DNA of 64,000 nucleotides from a bacterium. GTDB taxonomy: Bacteria > Patescibacteriota > Patescibacteriia > UBA2169. This document shows, piece after piece, positions 38-60,032 of this stretch. Location of the stretch: assembly GCA_002687895.1 (NCBI GenBank), contig NZBL01000003.1:20821-84820 (forward strand). Reading direction: 5' to 3'. The notes beneath the pieces are model-generated. The model saw only the letters and a program-made list of their open reading frames with translations, was not told the DNA's origin and ran no database searches. Every line of letters begins with the position of its first letter. Within the stretch, counting starts at the first letter, position 1. The translations under genes and the position numbers were made by a program.

Positions 38-2245
38 ATGAATACAAAAGTTTTAATCACAATTGCGATTGCGCTAATATTGGCAGTGCCGAGTATGGCA
101 CAAGCTAGATTTTATGATCCAAACGATATTTTAACTGATGCAGAATTAAATGATGGAAATGCCTTGTCGCGAACTGCGATTCAAAGATTTTTAGATCAAA
201 AAGGCAGTGTATTAAGAAATACAACAGCACTTGTTAATGGAGTTCCAAAGCTGGTAAGCGAAATGATATATGAATTAGGTCAATCTTATGGGATTAGCCA
301 AAAGTTTTTATTGGCTAAACTTCAGCAAGAACAAGGTCTGATAGAAAAGTCTACAGCATCTGATACTAAATTAGATTGGGCAACAGGATATTCTTGCTTT
401 AGTGGTCGATGCAATGAAAAATATAGGGGAATCTATAAGCAATTAGATGCTGCCGCGGACGTGCAAAGGATTTATAATGAACGCAGCCAGTCAGCAGGAT
501 ATTTTGGTTATCAAAAGGATAAAGAAACTAAAACAAGGGATGGTTTTACAGTAAAGCCCGAAAATCAAGCAACTACAAATCTGTATATTTATACGCCATA
601 CAAAGGATCCTTATCTGGAATAGGAGGCAATTTCTTTTTCTCTAGAGTATGGAACCAATATTTTACAGAACGAATATATCCAGATGGCGCGCTTTTGCGA
701 GATAGCGCAACTGGCGAGTATTGGAAAATTAAGAATAACAAAAGAAGGCAGTATATAACTGACGCAATCTACTTATCTGATCATGCGCCCGAAGACGCTA
801 TCACTGTTCCATCAGAGCGTCTTGTTTATTATCAAATAGGCGAGCCTATTACAATTACAAACAATACTGTGGTCAAAACAAATGATTCTGGAGTTATGTA
901 CCTTTTGTCAGATGGATTAAAGCACCGTTTAGTAGGAAGCAGTGCTTTAGCATCTTTGGGATATCATATTGCAGATACTAGCTCTATTACTCCTACTATT
1001 ATTTCCAAAAACGAACTTAATGATCTAGAAGAAGGCGAACCAATTACAGAACAATCACTATACCCAACTGGAATACTTGTAAAAAGCGATGGACCTAGTA
1101 TTTTTTATGTTAAGCACAGTATTAAGCAATTGCTTTTAGATGAAGCAGTATGGCAGGAAAATTTTAATAAGGAGGAGCCTGTGTATGTATCGCAGTCTGT
1201 TTTAGACGGTTTTACTCTTGGAGATCCACTAAGCCTGAATGAAGGCAGCTTGGTAAAGTCAAAAGACGGCAAATACTATACAATTTCCAATAATAAAATA
1301 AAGAGAATTGCTAGTGCTGATATTGTAAAGCGAGTATATGGAATAGCAAGCTTCAATATAGTTCCAGAAGCAAGCGATGAATTGCTTGAATTAACAGATG
1401 CTGGAGATCCAATTGAATATATTGATGATACAGTAGAAGACCCTATAAATTATATTTCCTATGCTGATCGCCAGCAAAATGTAACAATACAAAAAAATCC
1501 ATATTTTGCATTGTTTGATACTTTGATAGCGCCAAAGAGCATGCTTGCGGGCGCAAATTCAACAGTCACGGTCAAATTCAGGAATAGGGGTGATGTGAAT
1601 TGGCCAGCAGGTCAGGTCTATTTAAAATTAATTGATGAAAATCATCCTACAAGTTCGTTTATAGAAAATAATAGAATTCCTTTGGATACAACAGCTACTT
1701 ATAACCGCTTAGCAATGTTTGATGTAGGAATTACCGCGCCAATTGAACCTCAAAAAATCAAGCAATGGTTTATTTTGGAATATACAGATTCAAGCGGAAC
1801 TATTGTAGAAATGCCAGGTGGGCTTCTAAATCAGGAGATCAACGTGATATCTGATGTATCAGCAGAAGTTGTTGAACATGATCTTCCAGTTGCAATTAAA
1901 GCCAATTCACGGCCAAAGCAAGTTGAAATTCATTTAAAGAACAACAGCCGCAATCAAGTTTGGACATCCCGCCGAGCTGCACTTACACTTAAAGGCGGAG
2001 ATGATACAGAATCTGTATTTTATGATCCAGGAGATTGGATAGATAATGAAACAGTCGGAGTTCCAATTAATCAGACGCTAATTCGCCCGGGTGAAACTGG
2101 AACAATTAAATTCACTCTTGATCCCCGCAATGTACGTCCAGCAATTTATAAACTTGTATTTTCCATGGAATTAAGAGATATAGAAGAAACAGTATATATA
2201 AATGGCGAACAATTTTGGGAGCGCTTAATTAGGGTTGATAAATAA
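38..2245 (+). CDS. Secreted repeat protein with N-terminal signal peptide; N-terminal domain has a GH73/glucosaminidase-like A-x4-E-x-G motif (AKLQQEQGL ... LDWATGY); C-terminal part built of ~45-50 aa tandem repeats centred on G-[DE]-P-[IL]; paralog of 12710..14140
   Basis: ORF track 735 aa; signal-peptide-like N-terminus MNTKVLITIAIALILAVPSMAQA; N-terminal ~180 aa align by eye with ORF 12710..14140 (FYDPNDILTDAELNDGNALSRTAIQRFLDQKGS vs DFNQNNIISDFELEDYNSLSLDSIQRFLEQKGS); repeated motifs YQIGEPITIT / LEEGEPITEQSLYPTGILVKSDGPSIFYV / FTLGDPLSL / TDAGDPIEY. Confidence 0.55.
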   Translation: MNTKVLITIAIALILAVPSMAQARFYDPNDILTDAELNDGNALSRTAIQRFLDQKGSVLRNTTALVNGVPKLVSEMIYELGQSYGISQKFLLAKLQQEQGLIEKSTASDTKLDWATGYSCFSGRCNEKYRGIYKQLDAAADVQRIYNERSQSAGYFGYQKDKETKTRDGFTVKPENQATTNLYIYTPYKGSLSGIGGNFFFSRVWNQYFTERIYPDGALLRDSATGEYWKIKNNKRRQYITDAIYLSDHAPEDAITVPSERLVYYQIGEPITITNNTVVKTNDSGVMYLLSDGLKHRLVGSSALASLGYHIADTSSITPTIISKNELNDLEEGEPITEQSLYPTGILVKSDGPSIFYVKHSIKQLLLDEAVWQENFNKEEPVYVSQSVLDGFTLGDPLSLNEGSLVKSKDGKYYTISNNKIKRIASADIVKRVYGIASFNIVPEASDELLELTDAGDPIEYIDDTVEDPINYISYADRQQNVTIQKNPYFALFDTLIAPKSMLAGANSTVTVKFRNRGDVNWPAGQVYLKLIDENHPTSSFIENNRIPLDTTATYNRLAMFDVGITAPIEPQKIKQWFILEYTDSSGTIVEMPGGLLNQEINVISDVSAEVVEHDLPVAIKANSRPKQVEIHLKNNSRNQVWTSRRAALTLKGGDDTESVFYDPGDWIDNETVGVPINQTLIRPGETGTIKFTLDPRNVRPAIYKLVFSMELRDIEETVYINGEQFWERLIRVDK

Positions 2246-4116: not shown

Positions 4117-4797
4117 ATGGTAAGTTTCAAGAACGTAAGTAAAATTTATACTGGCCATCAAACAGCGCTTAAGAATGTAAATCTACATATAGAGCCTGGC
4201 GAGTTTGTCTCAATTGTCGGGCAAAGCGGAACAGGAAAAACAACTCTAGTTAAGCTGATTTTAGCGGAAGAGCGCCCCAGCCACGGCAAAATAAGCATAG
4301 GAGGATGGGATATTACAGATATAAAACACAGGGAAATCCCTACTTTGCGCAAGCAAATTGGAGTTGTGTTTCAGGATTTTAAGCTTTTACAAAGAAAAAC
4401 ATTGTTTGAAAATGTTGCTTTTGCCTTAGAAGTCGGCGGAGAGCAGCATAGCAATATTTATGAAATAGTTCCTCAAGTACTAAGGATTGTAGGATTAGAA
4501 GGAAAAATGGACAGGTTTCCGCATCAGATTTCCGGAGGAGAGCAGCAAAGAGTAGTTGTTGCGCGTTCGCTCGCGCACAGGCCCAAGATTCTAGTTGCGG
4601 ATGAGCCAACAGGAAATCTAGATTCAATTAATTCCCGCGACATAATTGAGCTATTAAAAAAAATAAATGATTTCGGCACAACAGTTATTTTAGTTACTCA
4701 CAACAGAGAGGTTGTAAATGAGCTGCATCGCAGGGTTATTACTTTGGAGGATGGAGTTGTTATAAGCGACAAGCAAAGAGGCAAGTATTTATTATAA
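4117..4797 (+). CDS. ftsE: Cell division ABC ATPase FtsE
   Basis: 226 aa; Walker A GQSGTGKTT, ABC signature ISGGEQQRVVVARSL, Walker B ILVADEPTGNLD; followed immediately by FtsX-like permease. Confidence 0.85.
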   Translation: MVSFKNVSKIYTGHQTALKNVNLHIEPGEFVSIVGQSGTGKTTLVKLILAEERPSHGKISIGGWDITDIKHREIPTLRKQIGVVFQDFKLLQRKTLFENVAFALEVGGEQHSNIYEIVPQVLRIVGLEGKMDRFPHQISGGEQQRVVVARSLAHRPKILVADEPTGNLDSINSRDIIELLKKINDFGTTVILVTHNREVVNELHRRVITLEDGVVISDKQRGKYLL

Positions 4798-4798
4798 T

Positions 4799-5719
4799 AT
4801 GATATTTCTTTCAATATCCAGGATTGCGAAATTTTCACTGCAGAATTTTTTTAGAAATATCTGGCTTTCTTTGGTTACTATTACAATCATAGTGCTTACT
4901 TTATTCAGCGTTACATCCTTGGTATTTGTCAACGCGGTCATGAACCAGGCAATTAAGTTGGTTGAATCAAAAGTAGATGTAAGCGTGTATTTTAAGCCTA
5001 CTGTAATAGAAGAGCAGATTGTGGCTGTGCAGTCTAATCTTGTTGAATTGCCATATGTCAAAGAAGTGCGCCATGTAACAAAATCACAGGCCTTGGCAGG
5101 CCTGCGCGAGCAATATAAGGACAGCCCCTTAATTTTAGAATCATTAAAGGAGCTGGGTAATAATCCCTTAGGAGATACTTTAATAGTAAATACTTATGAA
5201 ACGCAGGATTACCAAAAAGTAATTGATATATTAAAAGCAACTCCAGAGTACGCTGTTTTAATTGACAGCCAAAGCTTTGATGACAACAGCTATATCATAG
5301 ACAAGCTGGAGCAGATTTCTAAGCAAGTTACAGGAATTGGATGGGGAGTTACTGTCTTTTTCGCCTTAATATCATTATTAGTTATTGTCAACACAATTAG
5401 AATTGCCATATATACTCACCGCGATGAAATAGGCATTATGAAGCTTGTTGGCGCTTCTAATACTTTTGTGCGTGGCCCATTTATTGGAGAAGCAATTTTG
5501 TACGCGATATTAGGAAGCATTATAACATTTGGATTAACTTATATAGTTGCTGGATTTAGCGATCCATATATAGTAGGGTTGCTTGGCAAGACTGATTTTA
5601 CTTTGCTTAACTATCTAAATGCAAATGTATTATATATATTTGGAGGAGAGCTTATAGGAATTACATTAATATCAGTTATAGCTACTTCGCTTGCATTGCG
5701 CAGGTATATGCGTATATAA
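4799..5719 (+). CDS. ftsX: Cell division permease-like protein FtsX
   Basis: 306 aa; N-terminal TM, large extracellular loop, three C-terminal TMs; adjacent to ftsE. Confidence 0.75.
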   Translation: MIFLSISRIAKFSLQNFFRNIWLSLVTITIIVLTLFSVTSLVFVNAVMNQAIKLVESKVDVSVYFKPTVIEEQIVAVQSNLVELPYVKEVRHVTKSQALAGLREQYKDSPLILESLKELGNNPLGDTLIVNTYETQDYQKVIDILKATPEYAVLIDSQSFDDNSYIIDKLEQISKQVTGIGWGVTVFFALISLLVIVNTIRIAIYTHRDEIGIMKLVGASNTFVRGPFIGEAILYAILGSIITFGLTYIVAGFSDPYIVGLLGKTDFTLLNYLNANVLYIFGGELIGITLISVIATSLALRRYMRI

Positions 5720-5733
5720 TGCATAGCTATTAT

Positions 5734-5807
5734 TCGGGGATCGTCTAATGGTAGGACGCCAGGTTTTGGTCCTGGTAATCGGGGTTCAAATCCCTGTCCC
5801 CGAGCCA
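5734..5807 (+). tRNA. tRNA-Gln (anticodon TTG)
   Basis: TCGGGGATCGTCTAATGGTAGGACGCCAGGTTTTGGTCCTGGTAATCGGGGTTCAAATCCCTGTCCCCGAGCCA: acceptor stem TCGGGGA/TCCCCGA, anticodon loop TTTTGGT, T-arm GGTTCAAATCC, encoded CCA. Confidence 0.8.
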
Positions 5808-5811
5808 GGAA

Positions 5812-5843
5812 TTTAAAGGCCGCCTTTGGGTGGTTTTTTTGCT
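5812..5843 (+). terminator. Rho-independent terminator after tRNA-Gln
   Basis: aaaggccgcctttgggtggttttttt: GC hairpin (one G-U) followed by T7. Confidence 0.5.
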
Positions 5844-5855
5844 TGCAAATTTAGG

Positions 5856-5890
5856 GTTGACTAGATTATAAAAATATGTTATTATATTTT
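5856..5890 (+). promoter_or_regulatory. Sigma70-like promoter (TTGACT - 17 bp - TATTAT)
   Basis: ttgactagattataaaaatatgttattatat read directly from the sequence. Confidence 0.5.
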
Positions 5891-6119
5891 ACTCGTGAGT
5901 ATTGTACATTGAAAACAACCACATAGCCAAAAAATTTGGCTTAAAAGAAAAGCTTTATCATGAGCTTGAAAGAGGATTTTTTCAAAGTCGTAGGAGATCC
6001 AAGTTTCGTTAGTAGGTTATTCAGAGATTTGGATAATGCCAGAGGGTTTTTAGAGGAGCTTCCAAATACCATATGCGAGACACCCATTTTAATTATGCTA
6101 TAATATAAAGATAAGATTT

Positions 6120-39854: not shown

Positions 39855-41303
39855 TCAATTTCTCTTGTCAACCAGTCCAGACATTAACATAACCACACCA
39901 ATACCAAGTGGATGATTTAAGTATGGACTTACTCCGTGCGTTAATACTACAGCAACAAGGCCAATTATTCCTCCAAGTATTAAATAATTTTCACGATTTG
40001 ACCTCCACCCAAACTTTGCAATCATCCATAAAAGATATAAATAAAATCCAACTCCTAAAAGACCAATCTTAAGCCAAATTTCAAGCCAGCCAAGTTCAAA
40101 CGCTGTTGTTGTGTATAATCCATCTGGATTATTTTTTAGTACTCTTGGATCTTGGGACGCGTATGTAACCGAAGTTCCAAATCCAGATCCATATATTGGA
40201 TGATTTTTGATTGATGACAAGAGCGGCCTAATCTGTGAATAGCGGGATGACACAGCTGCTTCACCGCTGAATTTTGCTGCCCTGTCTTTTAGCAAATCAG
40301 CGCTCATTGTGCCTTTTGGAATTGGAAACATTGCTACTCCAACTGTCAATCCAATGCTTATCACAATAAGCCCAACAAATATTGATCCAAAACTTGAAAC
40401 CTGTTTAATCTTTTCTTTATTAAAAACTAGGATTACAAGCATTACTACCAAGGACGCTATTCCTGCCAGCCAAAAGCTCCTAGAAAATGACATGCTGATT
40501 GCTGATATCACAACAATAATCAATACCACAATCCATGAAACATATTTCTTTTGCTTTAATTTAATAAAGCCATACAGCATTCCAAGCAACGCGAATAATC
40601 CAAATAACAGCCAAATCTGGGACTGCATAAAAATACGGGAAGTCAAAATATTTGGATCAATATTTGTAATTTCTCCTAACCTAGAATACCTAGACCAATC
40701 ATATAATCTATCCTGCAATCCAAACAGCTCATGGCTGAAAATATAAAATAAAGCAATTGTTTTTACAGACAGCCACGCGATCGCGCTGATTACCACAATG
40801 CTGACTTCGCGCGCAATATGCTTTGATCTTGATAAAACATCATATATAGGAAATATCAATGCAAAGTACATGTAATTGTTCACATCACTGAATATTGATC
40901 CTAATCCATTGCCCCTTAATATTCCCCAAATAGTGCCCCAGATAATTATGATCGCAAGCCCGAGATATGGCTTAAATAATTTTGAATGTAAAAATGCGAT
41001 CTTGCGATCTTTTAAAGCATGAGCAAGCCACACTAATATGACAATAAGCCACAAAGTCATGCGGATTGTGACGTCAAACCCAGCAATATCCAATATAAAC
41101 ATCTTGCCTAAAGAGCCAATAATCAGCTCCCCAAAAATCAGCATTACTCCATATTCCAAGCGATAAACAGTTAAAAAAATCGCAGACGTGGCAATAAACC
41201 CAAAAATCCACGGACTTGCATCCACGTTAACATATGAAAGATATGAGAGTAACTCCGCAATCAAGACAATAATCAATGTATTTAAAATCAGGCCTTTTTT
41301 CAT
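39855..41303 (-). CDS. Polytopic membrane protein, O-antigen polymerase/ligase (Wzy/WaaL)-like
   Basis: 482 aa, at least 10 TMs with a large loop; located inside the glycosyltransferase cluster. Confidence 0.45.
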   Translation of the reverse strand: MKKGLILNTLIIVLIAELLSYLSYVNVDASPWIFGFIATSAIFLTVYRLEYGVMLIFGELIIGSLGKMFILDIAGFDVTIRMTLWLIVILVWLAHALKDRKIAFLHSKLFKPYLGLAIIIIWGTIWGILRGNGLGSIFSDVNNYMYFALIFPIYDVLSRSKHIAREVSIVVISAIAWLSVKTIALFYIFSHELFGLQDRLYDWSRYSRLGEITNIDPNILTSRIFMQSQIWLLFGLFALLGMLYGFIKLKQKKYVSWIVVLIIVVISAISMSFSRSFWLAGIASLVVMLVILVFNKEKIKQVSSFGSIFVGLIVISIGLTVGVAMFPIPKGTMSADLLKDRAAKFSGEAAVSSRYSQIRPLLSSIKNHPIYGSGFGTSVTYASQDPRVLKNNPDGLYTTTAFELGWLEIWLKIGLLGVGFYLYLLWMIAKFGWRSNRENYLILGGIIGLVAVVLTHGVSPYLNHPLGIGVVMLMSGLVDKRN

Positions 41304-41368
41304 AGCCCTAATATACTAGCTAGAAACAAAGCAAAAGTAAATGCAGGGCCCCTAGTTTCGAGACCCTA

Positions 41369-41545
41369 CTACCTCACTAACCTGCTGGTAGTTGATTTGG
41401 TGACATATGCGCCACCCTTTCCTTGACACTTGCTGCAATCAACTTTTCCACCTTGCAGCGTAGGCGCCTTCTTTATGCACCTCCTGCAATCACACTTTCC
41501 AGTACCATTGCAATGGACGCAATTCTGCCAGGTAATTCTTGGCAT
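41369..41545 (-). CDS. Small Cys-rich protein (58 aa) with two CxxCxGxG DnaJ-type zinc-finger repeats plus CxC-xx-C
   Basis: Minus strand ggaggtaaacaATG; MPRITWQNCVHCNGTGKCDCRRCIKKAPTLQGGKVDCSKCQGKGGAYVTKSTTSRLVR (below the ORF-track size cut-off). Confidence 0.45.
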   Translation of the reverse strand: MPRITWQNCVHCNGTGKCDCRRCIKKAPTLQGGKVDCSKCQGKGGAYVTKSTTSRLVR

Positions 41546-41568
41546 TGTTTACCTCCCCATGGTTTACG

Positions 41569-41778
41569 TCAATTTATCTGCAGTTCACATGCTATTCTAG
41601 CTTCCTCTCTTCTTACAACCAAGAAGCCATCATGCCCACTTGTGCAGGCCTTATTGGCGCATCCATAGTGAACCTCCTTTTCAAACACACGCCTCTTAAG
41701 TTCTGCATTACAATATGGGCAATTGCCCCAATCTTTTTCCTCCCCTTTCCTGATTTGAGTGTTTTCAGCCATGATCAC
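41569..41778 (-). CDS. Small zinc-ribbon protein (69 aa; CPYC...CANKAC)
   Basis: ORF track; four Cys in CxxC-(17)-CxxxxC arrangement; overlaps the stop of the upstream GT2 gene by 14 nt. Confidence 0.45.
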   Translation of the reverse strand: MIMAENTQIRKGEEKDWGNCPYCNAELKRRVFEKEVHYGCANKACTSGHDGFLVVRREEARIACELQIN

Positions 41779-42550
41779 GCTCCTTTTTTTTCAAAAAGTA
41801 GTGGGCCATGCTTCGAAAGAACCATGCCTGTTTTGTAAGCGTCATCTGCTGTTTAAATGATTCACCTCCTTTATGTACAACAGATATATGTGGATAATAA
41901 ATAACATTATAGCCAGCTTTCCAGACCCTGCGGCAAAAGTCAACTTCCTCGAACCAAATATAGAATTTTTCATCAAGTAGGCCGATTTGATTAAACACAG
42001 ATCTCCGAACCAAGAAAAAAGCTCCCATTACTTGATCAATTTTTTGTTCTCGCGAATAATCAAAATCTTTTGCAAGATAATTATCTAAAAGCAATGGAAA
42101 TGGCTTATGTAGTTTTAGTAATATGACAATTTGCGACCATATAGTTGGAAATCTGCGAACAGAGGGCTGAAGTGTCCTATCTTGATTCAGTAAGCGACAT
42201 CCAAGAACTCCTATTTTCTTGTCTGACTCCACTTTCGCAATCACTTTTGAAAGTGTGTCTTCAATAAATTCTGTATCAGGATTTAACAGCAAAACATAAT
42301 CCCCTTTTGACTGTCTAATTCCTTGATTATTTGCTTTTGCAAAACCAAAATTCTCTTTGTTAGTAATTAGCTTTACTTGCGGAAAATTCTGCTTGATCAT
42401 GTCAGATGTTCCATCATTTGAAGCATTATCAACAACTATAATTTCATATCCAACATTTTGCGAATACTTCAAAACAGACTCAATACATTTCTTGAGCAAG
42501 TCTTTCACGTTCCACGAAACAATAATTATAGATATATCCATACTCAACAT
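41765..42550 (-). CDS. Family 2 glycosyltransferase
   Basis: ISIIIVSWNVKDLLKKCIESV...VVDNASNDGT. Confidence 0.75.
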   Translation of the reverse strand: MLSMDISIIIVSWNVKDLLKKCIESVLKYSQNVGYEIIVVDNASNDGTSDMIKQNFPQVKLITNKENFGFAKANNQGIRQSKGDYVLLLNPDTEFIEDTLSKVIAKVESDKKIGVLGCRLLNQDRTLQPSVRRFPTIWSQIVILLKLHKPFPLLLDNYLAKDFDYSREQKIDQVMGAFFLVRRSVFNQIGLLDEKFYIWFEEVDFCRRVWKAGYNVIYYPHISVVHKGGESFKQQMTLTKQAWFFRSMAHYFLKKKERDHG

Positions 42551-42718
42551 ACTACCTCATTTAACCAAAAAGAAAAGCGCCGCACGAACATGTGAAGCGC
42601 TAACCGTTGCTTGGATTTAAGATTTAAAAGTAGACTAATTTGACGGAACTCTAAGGGATATATAGACAGCAACCCTTCTGATTGTGCAATCTCAGTTAGC
42701 AGATCAGACATCTGCATT

Positions 42719-58847: not shown

Positions 58848-60032
58848 ATGCCAATATCAACAACTAATGCCAAACCAAAAACTCTGAATAATGAGCATGG
58901 TTCTAATAGTTCTGATAATTTTAATGCTCTTGAAAAAAAACTGCTAAATCCAGATGGAATAAACCAAAAATTTGATCTTTTATTTGATGTAATAAGATCT
59001 GTTCCAGCAGATGAAAAAATTTTTTTCACGCAGAACTTCGGAGTAATGCTCAAGAGCGGGCTTGCTGCTGCGCGATCTTTAAGAACGCTTACTTTGCAGG
59101 CTAACAACCCCAAATTCGCCAGAACCCTGGCAAAAATTACAAGAGATGTGGAAAAAGGCCTGCCAATCGCGGATTCCATGGGAAAATACCCAAAAGTATT
59201 TTCTCCGATATTCGTGAACATGGTGCGGGCCGGAGAAAAATCAGGACAGCTTGAGCCTGTTCTGCAGGAGCTGACTCGCCAGCTTAAGCGCAGCCACCAG
59301 CTTAAACAAAAAGTAAAAGGCGCTTTAATGTATCCAATTGTTATTCTTGTGGCAATGGTAGCTATTGGAACTGGCATGGTGCTGTTTATCATTCCAAAGC
59401 TTCTTACAATTTTCACGGAAATGAGCGTGGATCTGCCCATAGCAACTAGAATATTGATTTATATTTCTACCTTGATAAATAATAATATATTTATTGTAGC
59501 GCCTATAGTTATATTAGGCTCTGGATTTCTTGTGTATATAACAAGAAAAGGCCCAGGCCAGCGCATTTGGCATAAAATAATCCTTAAAATGCCTATTGTA
59601 AAAAAAATAGCAATTAAAATAAATCTAGCTAAAATATCAAGAACCTTAAGCTCACTTCTCGCAACTGACATGCCTATTGTAGACAGCTTAAAGCTTTCTT
59701 CTAATGTCATAAAAAACATGGAATACAGAGCATCTTTATTGGAAATAGCGTCTAAAGTGGAAAAAGGAGAAACCATTTCCAGCCATTTAGCAAGATACGA
59801 AAAACTCTACCCTCCTGTTGTTCAGCAAATGATGCAGGTTGGAGAAGAAACAGGAGAAATATCCAACATACTTAACCAGCTTGCGGAATTTTACGAGGAA
59901 GATGTTCGCCAAACAATGGAATCTTTACCAACTATTATTGAGCCTGTGCTGATCATTCTTTTAGGAGGCGCTGTTGGCGGCATGGCAATAGCGGTTATTA
60001 CGCCTATGTTCTCTTTGGCTAATGCTGTTTAA
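58848..60032 (+). CDS. pilC: Type IV pilus platform protein PilC (GspF family)
   Basis: 394 aa; two GspF repeats, three TMs. Confidence 0.85.
   Translation: MPISTTNAKPKTLNNEHGSNSSDNFNALEKKLLNPDGINQKFDLLFDVIRSVPADEKIFFTQNFGVMLKSGLAAARSLRTLTLQANNPKFARTLAKITRDVEKGLPIADSMGKYPKVFSPIFVNMVRAGEKSGQLEPVLQELTRQLKRSHQLKQKVKGALMYPIVILVAMVAIGTGMVLFIIPKLLTIFTEMSVDLPIATRILIYISTLINNNIFIVAPIVILGSGFLVYITRKGPGQRIWHKIILKMPIVKKIAIKINLAKISRTLSSLLATDMPIVDSLKLSSNVIKNMEYRASLLEIASKVEKGETISSHLARYEKLYPPVVQQMMQVGEETGEISNILNQLAEFYEEDVRQTMESLPTIIEPVLIILLGGAVGGMAIAVITPMFSLANAV

Follow-up and report, generated by a model that had tools for sequence, protein, structure and literature searches.

The window analysed here, a 64,000-nt stretch of DNA from a marine Patescibacteria (candidate phyla radiation, CPR) population, contains on its minus strand two adjacent genes for cysteine-rich mini-proteins, to which we gave the working names p67 and p58. 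They lie between the gene of a family 2 glycosyltransferase (GT2) and that of a polytopic membrane protein. The GT2 gene (41765..42550, minus strand) encodes a 261-aa protein that matched Pfam Glycos_transf_2 (PF00535) with an E-value of 3.3e-31 and 108.9 bits, above the gathering cut-off of 23.3, in agreement with the initial annotation. Its 3' end reads ...CAT GGC TGA, and the GT2 stop and the p67 ATG overlap by 8 nt (ATGGCTGA). p67 (41569..41772, minus strand; 67 aa from the ATG at 41772) is a C4 zinc-ribbon-like orphan with the pattern CPYC-x16-CANKAC, and a GGAG is positioned 7 nt upstream of its ATG. The initial annotation had given the motif and the overlap correctly and had read the gene as a 69-aa open reading frame (ORF; 41569..41778) that starts at an alternative GTG at 41778; this start is less likely, because it is the ATG at 41772 that has the overlap with the GT2 stop and the GGAG. 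The spacer between p67 and p58 is 23 nt long and contains a Shine-Dalgarno (SD) sequence, GGAGG (41553..41557, minus strand), 6 nt before the p58 ATG (GGAGG-taaaca-ATG). p58 (41369..41545, minus strand; 58 aa) corresponded exactly to the 58-codon ORF with an SD that had been described before, in its quoted protein sequence and in its two CxxCxGxG motifs (CVHCNGTG and CSKCQGKG) flanking CDCRRC. The number of cysteines, reported as ten, is seven, together with one histidine. A terminator-like hairpin (41333..41369, minus strand) begins at the p58 stop codon and consists of a 10-bp stem with 6 G-C pairs, plus AUUUACUUUU; its fold is predicted at -25.3 kcal/mol (z=-2.3), and the U-tract is weak. 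The membrane protein gene (39855..41303, minus strand) starts 65 nt beyond p58 and encodes a 482-aa protein with about 10-12 hydrophobic segments, which is Wzy_C/O-antigen-ligase-like by orthology. GT2, p67 and p58 most likely form a single, tightly packed transcription and translation unit that is ended by the hairpin before the Wzy_C-like gene. An Rfam search (E<=1) gave no match in this region, and an RNA element in place of the mini-genes was rejected.

No gene had been called at the p58 position on any of seven other ocean-metagenome contigs of the same population (0/7), and the exact p58 sequence was absent from a collection of 15 billion proteins. The seven contigs matched the window at an identity of at least 99.96%, which rose to 100% over the mini-gene region, and they therefore carry no information on population variation. 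The codon usage of p58 is atypical (log-likelihood ratio, LLR, -7.4), which is probably why gene callers skip it. We scanned the 1337 stop-to-stop segments of the window with a leave-one-out hidden Markov model (HMM) of the p58 family defined below. p58 ranked first (E=8.4e-13; 44.6 bits), and no other segment in the window matched significantly, p67 scoring E=0.8. p58 was also the only one of these segments in which CxxCxGxG occurs twice. A minus-strand ORF at 59082..59240 with the motif CNFCQGSG (family-HMM E=0.03) was dismissed as a spurious shadow ORF opposite a T2SS-F/PilC-type gene (58848..60032; Pfam E=1e-55).

To judge selection on the family, we compared two related loci, L017 and L037, the sole close strain pair (about 90% nucleotide identity). 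Their first mini-genes, members of the p58 family, differed by 10 synonymous and 15 non-synonymous changes, corresponding to a dN/dS of 0.32 with all Cys and His residues kept; the adjacent GT2 gene had a dN/dS of 0.22. Given the family-HMM match (E=8e-13), the synteny described below and this purifying selection on a relative, p58 is, as judged from sequence comparison, a real, selected protein-coding gene. The same three lines of evidence exclude a chance ORF or a decaying spacer remnant as an explanation of p58, in spite of its codon usage. The encoded protein has a net charge of +10 and a pI of about 11.5; no hydrophobic segment was found in p58 or p67, and p58 is a cytoplasmic, strongly basic mini-protein.

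The second mini-genes of L017 and L037 differed at two positions only. Along the compared segments (L037 768..1152 and L017 3500..3885), dS fell from about 0.33 in GT2 and the first mini-gene to 0.03 in the second, a drop that points to a recombination breakpoint separating the first mini-gene from the second. The first mini-gene of L037 also carries a 1-nt deletion in an A-run, beyond which the old frame still encodes the conserved protein; either the assembly is wrong at this point or the frameshift is very recent.

p58 belongs to a rare, unnamed family without a Pfam model. We defined this family from P0007, P0008, P0012-P0028 and the related loci L008, L017 and L023; its signature is C-x-H-C-x-G-x-G-x-C-x-C-x-x-C…C-x-x-C-x-G-x-G. 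When 1.84 billion representatives were searched exhaustively with phmmer, a few true relatives emerged, namely P0007 (45 aa, 58% identical to p58), P0008 and P0012 (two repeats each), and P0010. The other matches with E<=0.001, including the top match, P0002, were not accepted as relatives; on inspection, P0002, P0003 and P0009 were repetitive proteins without the family signature. A profile search of a word-indexed 5.8-billion collection added P0013-P0028, none of which has a functional name or a Pfam domain. Pfam, NCBIfam, PHROG and PADLOC contained no model that was significant for p58 or the family, and since no family member matched PADLOC, a known defence component was rejected. No family member was found in IMG/VR, searched with the family alignment for a viral origin, or in phage and plasmid collections, searched with p58 by tblastn. 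One phage match (LR745206.1), a generic CxxCxGxG array that ends a 469-aa protein and does not carry the family signature, was discarded. In the literature, nothing specific was found on the motif string or on small Cys-rich proteins of CPR bacteria.

Alignment of 15 family sequences (A3) revealed ten invariant columns (C9, H11, C12, G14, C18, C20, C23, C37, C40 and G42), with G16 and G44 nearly invariant; p58 has every invariant ligand and glycine. The putative zinc ligands of p58 are thus C9, H11, C12, C18, C20, C23, C37 and C40. As seven Cys and one His make up eight conserved ligands, two zinc sites are implied, and the family most likely holds two Zn(II) ions. We infer that C9/C12/C37/C40, contributed by both CxxCxGxG knuckles, would form site 1 and H11/C18/C20/C23 site 2. 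Site 1 as predicted can be likened to the outer zinc site of the DnaJ cysteine-rich (CR) domain and to that of anti-TRAP.

We then compared the family with known zinc-finger systems. The PDB entries that its profile matched best were the DnaJ CR domain (1EXK; E=8e-4), EMB2737 (2e-3), anti-TRAP (0.01) and BSD2 (0.04); hhalign aligned a single knuckle and the next strand, over 16 columns for DnaJ (84% probability) and 26 for anti-TRAP. The family thus has the CxxCxGxG knuckle in common with the DnaJ CR/anti-TRAP class without being a member of those families. The "DnaJ-type fingers" of the initial annotation were accordingly correct at the level of the motif and not of the family, the DnaJ_CXXCXGXG model (PF00684) scoring 10.9 bits on p58 (E=0.6), below the cut-off of 32.7. 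Like p58, the CR domain of E. coli DnaJ (1EXK) has CxxCxGxG knuckles with a short strand after each, and a pair of zinc sites is expected in both. However, DnaJ CR has four CxxCxGxG repeats and p58 two canonical ones, with CxCxxC instead of the inner pair and a His within the first knuckle; unlike DnaJ, p58 is a stand-alone protein of 58 aa and has no J-domain.

Anti-TRAP (RtpA; PF15777/NF058604; PDB 2BX9 and 3LCZ) is, like p58, a stand-alone protein of about 53-58 aa with two CxxCxGxG-type motifs, and it was the weak best match of p58 in Pfam (13 bits against a cut-off of 32) and NCBIfam (13.2 against 65). However, it holds one zinc per monomer and has no H/CxCxxC element; p58, for its part, is without a TRAP or trp context, although no search aimed at mtrB/TRAP was made, and lies in a glycan locus of a Patescibacterium. 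Anti-TRAP works by zinc-dependent binding of another protein (PMC2896485). The plastid BSD2/ZnJ2 proteins (Pfam BSD2_CRD and zf-AtTam37), DnaJ-like zinc fingers without a J-domain, also have CxxCxGxG-based zinc domains, and each is devoted to one specific client as its holding or assembly chaperone (PMC5818400). P0007, P0008 and P0012 gave weak matches of this class (E 0.01-0.09), all under the cut-offs; unlike p58, BSD2 and ZnJ2 have four repeats, are larger and are eukaryotic and organellar. In their general build, the haloarchaeal C(P)XCG zinc-finger micro-proteins and Brz also resemble p58, being prokaryotic proteins of <70 aa with paired Cys knuckles. Such micro-proteins are often unannotated and their roles are mostly unknown (PMC11241148, PMC10716476); the gene of Brz immediately precedes bop, which has the same orientation and is regulated by Brz (PMC2253796). 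The haloarchaeal proteins have C(P)XCG pairs, usually with one zinc, and are archaeal; no sequence relationship to p58 was detected.

To examine the GT2/Wzy_C junction in relatives, we collected 22 related loci from scans with the 482-aa membrane protein. This protein itself gave no family match in Pfam (E<=1), NCBIfam or PDB. Six of seven orthologues (51-56% identical) scored 42.6-52.7 bits against Wzy_C (PF04932; cut-off 31.7), while that of L008 failed. The Wzy-like label of the initial annotation is therefore sustained by orthology only, since the orthologues pass Wzy_C and the window's own protein does not. The proteins of the window and L008 are probably family members that standard annotation cannot see.

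The order GT2 to membrane protein was kept in all loci with a readable upstream part, and the content between the two genes varied. When counted by lineage (15), the junction was empty in six (L016/L019, L021, L024, L026, L028 and L029), held QueH on the opposite strand in three (L012/L013/L020, L014 and L015; Pfam QueH E=3.5e-64), held same-strand p58-type mini-genes in four and a longer Cys-rich ORF in two. QueH is an epoxyqueuosine reductase and lies at 1551..2108 (minus strand) in L012. The lineages with p58-type mini-genes are the window, L008=L025 (67 aa), L017 (61 and 66 aa in tandem) and L023 (63 aa). The conservation of p58 where the flanking genes are shared was thus borne out, with same-junction, same-strand members in L008=L025, L017 (two) and L023. 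The longer Cys-rich ORFs of the sister lineages L011 (134 aa) and L018 (160 aa; 285..767) were 53% identical to each other (E=6e-28), shared the motif WMxKYGxxFGRxPGxCKxCMG and were borderline or undetected with the family HMM. In L011, the ORF lies in a 1.3-kb GC-rich insert (4700..6000), whose GC content at third codon positions (GC3) is 0.72-0.77 compared with 0.54-0.57 in the flanks and which also holds a 227-aa ORF without a family match. These results indicated that the GT2/Wzy_C junction is a hotspot of gene turnover.

A neighbour-joining tree of the membrane proteins placed the mini-bearing lineages at scattered positions: L023 was basal, and the window, L008 and L017 fell in a clade with QueH-bearing and empty junctions. 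This distribution would fit either an old presence with repeated loss or repeated gain. Translational coupling of the mini-gene to GT2 was found in the window and L008. A terminator-like hairpin follows the Cys-rich ORF in five of six lineages (the window, L017, L023, L018 and L011; none in L008). Most of these hairpins are clearer than that of the window, with 12-bp stems and a U-rich tail in L017 and L023 and stems followed by U8 in L018 and L011. When three mini-less junctions were folded (L016, L024 and L026), no terminator was seen. A terminator at this position means that the mini-gene either closes the GT2 transcription unit or belongs to a gene-plus-terminator cassette.

p67 has five cysteines, and those of its C4 knuckles are C18, C21, C38 and C43. 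Public assemblies call it as a hypothetical protein (P0001, a single-member cluster, 100% identical), and its automatic name at JGI is 'ssDNA-binding Zn-finger/Zn-ribbon topoisomerase 1'. No homologue of p67 was found in the word-indexed 5.8-billion collection, PDB sequences, the related loci, IMG/VR, phages or plasmids; the exhaustive search of representatives was run with p58 only. The best Pfam matches were sub-threshold, namely DNA_ligase_ZBD (PF03119; E=0.006; 16.9 bits against 25.8) and Zn_ribbon_Top1 (PF01396; E=0.04; 14.1 bits against 32). The C4 ribbons of topoisomerase I and NAD-ligase represented by these families have CPxC...(aromatic)GCxxxxC in common with p67, whereas p67 stands alone, without an enzyme domain. 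An AlphaFold2 (AF2) model from the single p67 sequence contained strands at 12-17, 24-29 and 33-38 over the knuckles and a C-terminal helix, with a predicted local distance difference test (pLDDT) score of 75-82 over residues 11-40. A Foldseek search of this model against PDB gave no match with E<=0.001; the ribbons of E. coli topoisomerase I were among the matches at E~3. We also considered whether p67 could be a diverged paralogue of p58, an idea based on W-x-N-C-x-x-C-N, a GFLVV-like tail and the tandem pairs in L017 and L033; it was unsupported (family HMM E=0.8; tblastn E ~0.4-1.5).

p67 is probably a real gene, because its start overlaps the GT2 stop, it has an SD, it fills the gap and its codon score is well above out-of-frame values. 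We think it rather improbable that p67 is a chance ORF or a decaying spacer remnant, and this is less plausible still for p58. A chance ORF would account for the lack of homologues in the collections searched and for the absence of a p67-like ORF from all related junctions (0/14). It would also agree with a weak codon LLR of 1.7, under the 5th percentile (2.4) of true in-frame chunks, and with the loose C4 pattern, which is not rare by itself because five other, mostly non-coding, segments of the window have it. However, the same LLR far exceeds that of out-of-frame chunks (95th percentile -12.9), the GGAG is well spaced from the ATG, the ORF fills the whole gap, and the GC content of 0.44 exceeds that of window genes. 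The three-stranded sheet predicted over the Cys knuckles, moderately confident and from a single sequence, also argues against chance. p67 is plausibly a lineage-specific C4 zinc-ribbon orphan that is most likely translationally coupled to GT2. The initial annotation thus described the locus largely correctly; its interpretation found support for p58 and not for p67, whose conservation in relatives with the same flanking genes failed to appear.

The segment had also been described as GC-shifted. Its GC content is indeed raised, at 0.48 for p58 and 0.44 for p67 compared with 0.38+-0.02 for window genes, and so is GC3 (0.50 and 0.40 compared with 0.31+-0.03). We resampled codons on the fixed amino-acid sequences and obtained an expected GC3 of 0.39+-0.06 for p58 (P=0.04) and 0.37+-0.05 for p67 (P=0.29). 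Foreign origin as the cause of the shift was rejected: the content of Cys, Gly and Arg, together with the preference for TGC (74% of Cys codons in this genome), accounts for most of it. As the shift is mostly compositional, it is weak evidence for foreign origin.

To our knowledge, paired small Zn-binding proteins are not standard components of Wzx/Wzy pathways. By analogy with anti-TRAP, BSD2/ZnJ2 and the DnaJ CR domain, which by our account are all the characterised stand-alone CxxCxGxG proteins, we tentatively propose, with a probability of roughly 0.4, that p58 is a zinc-structured, protein-binding accessory that is made together with GT2 and serves to hold, assemble or inhibit the product of a neighbouring gene. 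Candidates for this partner are GT2, which would be translated along with p58, and the Wzy_C-like protein encoded nearby; p67 might be a second small partner. We counted in favour of such a protein-binding role that distant family members lie 31-47 nt upstream of a large, co-directional protein gene. P0014 lies 47 nt upstream of a co-directional gene for a CAP12-PCTIR TIR protein (L032 4685..6560), and P0012 lies 31 nt upstream of a co-directional gene for a trypsin-WD40 protein (L031 5001..6968), the protease of which resembles defence reverse transcriptase (RT)-proteases. A third member, P0023 (L034 59..3611), adjoins MazE, Ppl-like ATPase, GIY-YIG and PLD-SNF2 genes. These loci hint that distant members may be linked to islands of conflict or defence genes. 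In the small sample of distant members, tandem copies are seen more than once, and so is a large neighbour in the same direction. P0022 has a tandem paralogue, and in one array the genes of P0019, P0008 and a 393-aa multi-repeat protein alternate with those of small membrane proteins.

Several observations weigh against a protein-binding accessory of glycan synthesis. Outside the Patescibacteria lineage, the family has no linkage to glycosyltransferases, and a family member was present in only 4/15 junctions, so that p58 is dispensable for the GT2/Wzy_C pair. The hairpin lies between p58 and the Wzy_C-like gene. The similarity to DnaJ CR and anti-TRAP spans one knuckle, with Pfam and NCBIfam scores far under the cut-offs. 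The AF2 model of p58 from the 15-sequence alignment was unusable (pLDDT 56), so the two-zinc topology is drawn from conservation only. For p67, the possible second partner, relatives are lacking, and a Cys pattern like its own is not rare by itself.

It is somewhat unlikely, yet well worth considering, that the mini-genes are accessory cargo at a tolerated insertion site, carried as a cassette of one or more genes and a terminator, and that they play no part in glycan synthesis but act, for instance, as conflict- or defence-associated adaptors. The junction contents differ between lineages, including a longer Cys-rich ORF within a 1.3-kb GC-rich insert, and this, the scattered positions of mini-bearing lineages on the membrane-protein tree and the terminators, found after the Cys-rich ORF in five of six lineages and in none of the three mini-less junctions folded, would all be expected of such cargo. 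The TIR, trypsin-WD40, MazE, Ppl-like ATPase, GIY-YIG and PLD-SNF2 neighbours of distant members and the tandem or multi-copy arrays in L017, L033 and L030 point in the same direction, as do GC3 values that are marginally over expectation in p58 and above the flanks in L008, L023 and L011. However, the mini-genes share the strand of the flanking genes in every case, their translation is coupled to that of GT2 in the window and L008, and mobility genes, repeats and attachment sites were not seen at the junction. The lack of a PADLOC match and of a confirmed member in IMG/VR, phage and plasmid collections also speaks against cargo, and the presence in basal L023 and in the clade of the window, L008 and L017 equally fits old vertical inheritance with losses.

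A broader reading, which we regard as unlikely, would join the distant members with those of the glycan locus. The family module would be an undescribed two-zinc fold, a small partner devoted to regulating, inhibiting or assembling the large protein of an adjacent gene. It would have been recruited repeatedly, to TIR and trypsin-WD40 conflict effectors in some bacteria and to the GT2/Wzy_C surface-glycan operon in a Patescibacteria lineage, where it would gate glycan assembly. The family would then be much larger than the ~25 clusters seen, because gene callers often miss its members.

It is quite doubtful that p58 is instead a nucleic-acid-binding zinc-finger regulator of the neighbouring glycan genes, analogous to Brz. 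Its charge of +10 and pI of about 11.5, the charges of +7 to +8 in L017a, L017b and L023, and its position immediately before the Wzy_C-like gene, from which a structured spacer separates it, would suit such a regulator, as would the precedent of a small zinc-finger regulator whose gene adjoins its target (PMC2253796). Yet the charge is not conserved (L008 -1, P0023 0, P0026 -2), a helix-turn-helix or known DNA- or RNA-binding signature is absent, and those CxxCxGxG proteins that have been characterised bind to other proteins rather than to nucleic acids (PMC2896485, PMC5818400). For a redox role of the mini-proteins, there was no specific support.

Small zinc-finger proteins form a large, poorly annotated share of prokaryotic genomes, and the surface glycans of Patescibacteria are thought to be important for their episymbiotic lifestyle. 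The new findings are a family of small zinc-finger proteins without a name and a gene, overlooked by gene calling, at a variable glycan-locus junction of Patescibacteria; as they stand, they are a modest result of annotation and classification. The compact family signature could become an HMM for re-annotation, and the pairing of such a mini-protein with the GT2/Wzy_C glycan locus of Patescibacteria can be tested. If p58 does bind a protein partner as we propose, it would be a bacterial counterpart to anti-TRAP and BSD2-type regulators.

In the paralogue array of distant members (L030 5001..7571), the family proteins have 95 aa, 221 aa (two repeats) and 393 aa (at least two repeats and a Cys-rich tail). 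Two homologous small membrane proteins (141 and 170 aa) are encoded in alternation with them, and the array lies downstream of the gene for a 797-aa beta-propeller protein; all of these are unannotated. In the window, the wider neighbourhood of the mini-genes includes RpoA, L17, L13, S9, a Wzx/MOP flippase, a family 4 glycosyltransferase (GT4), several GT2s and a DUF4012 protein. A further small ORF of 57 aa in this operon (42544..42717, minus strand) lies between the two GT2 genes and overlaps the downstream GT2 start; public assemblies call a 55-aa gene there, which has no Pfam match and is not Cys-rich.

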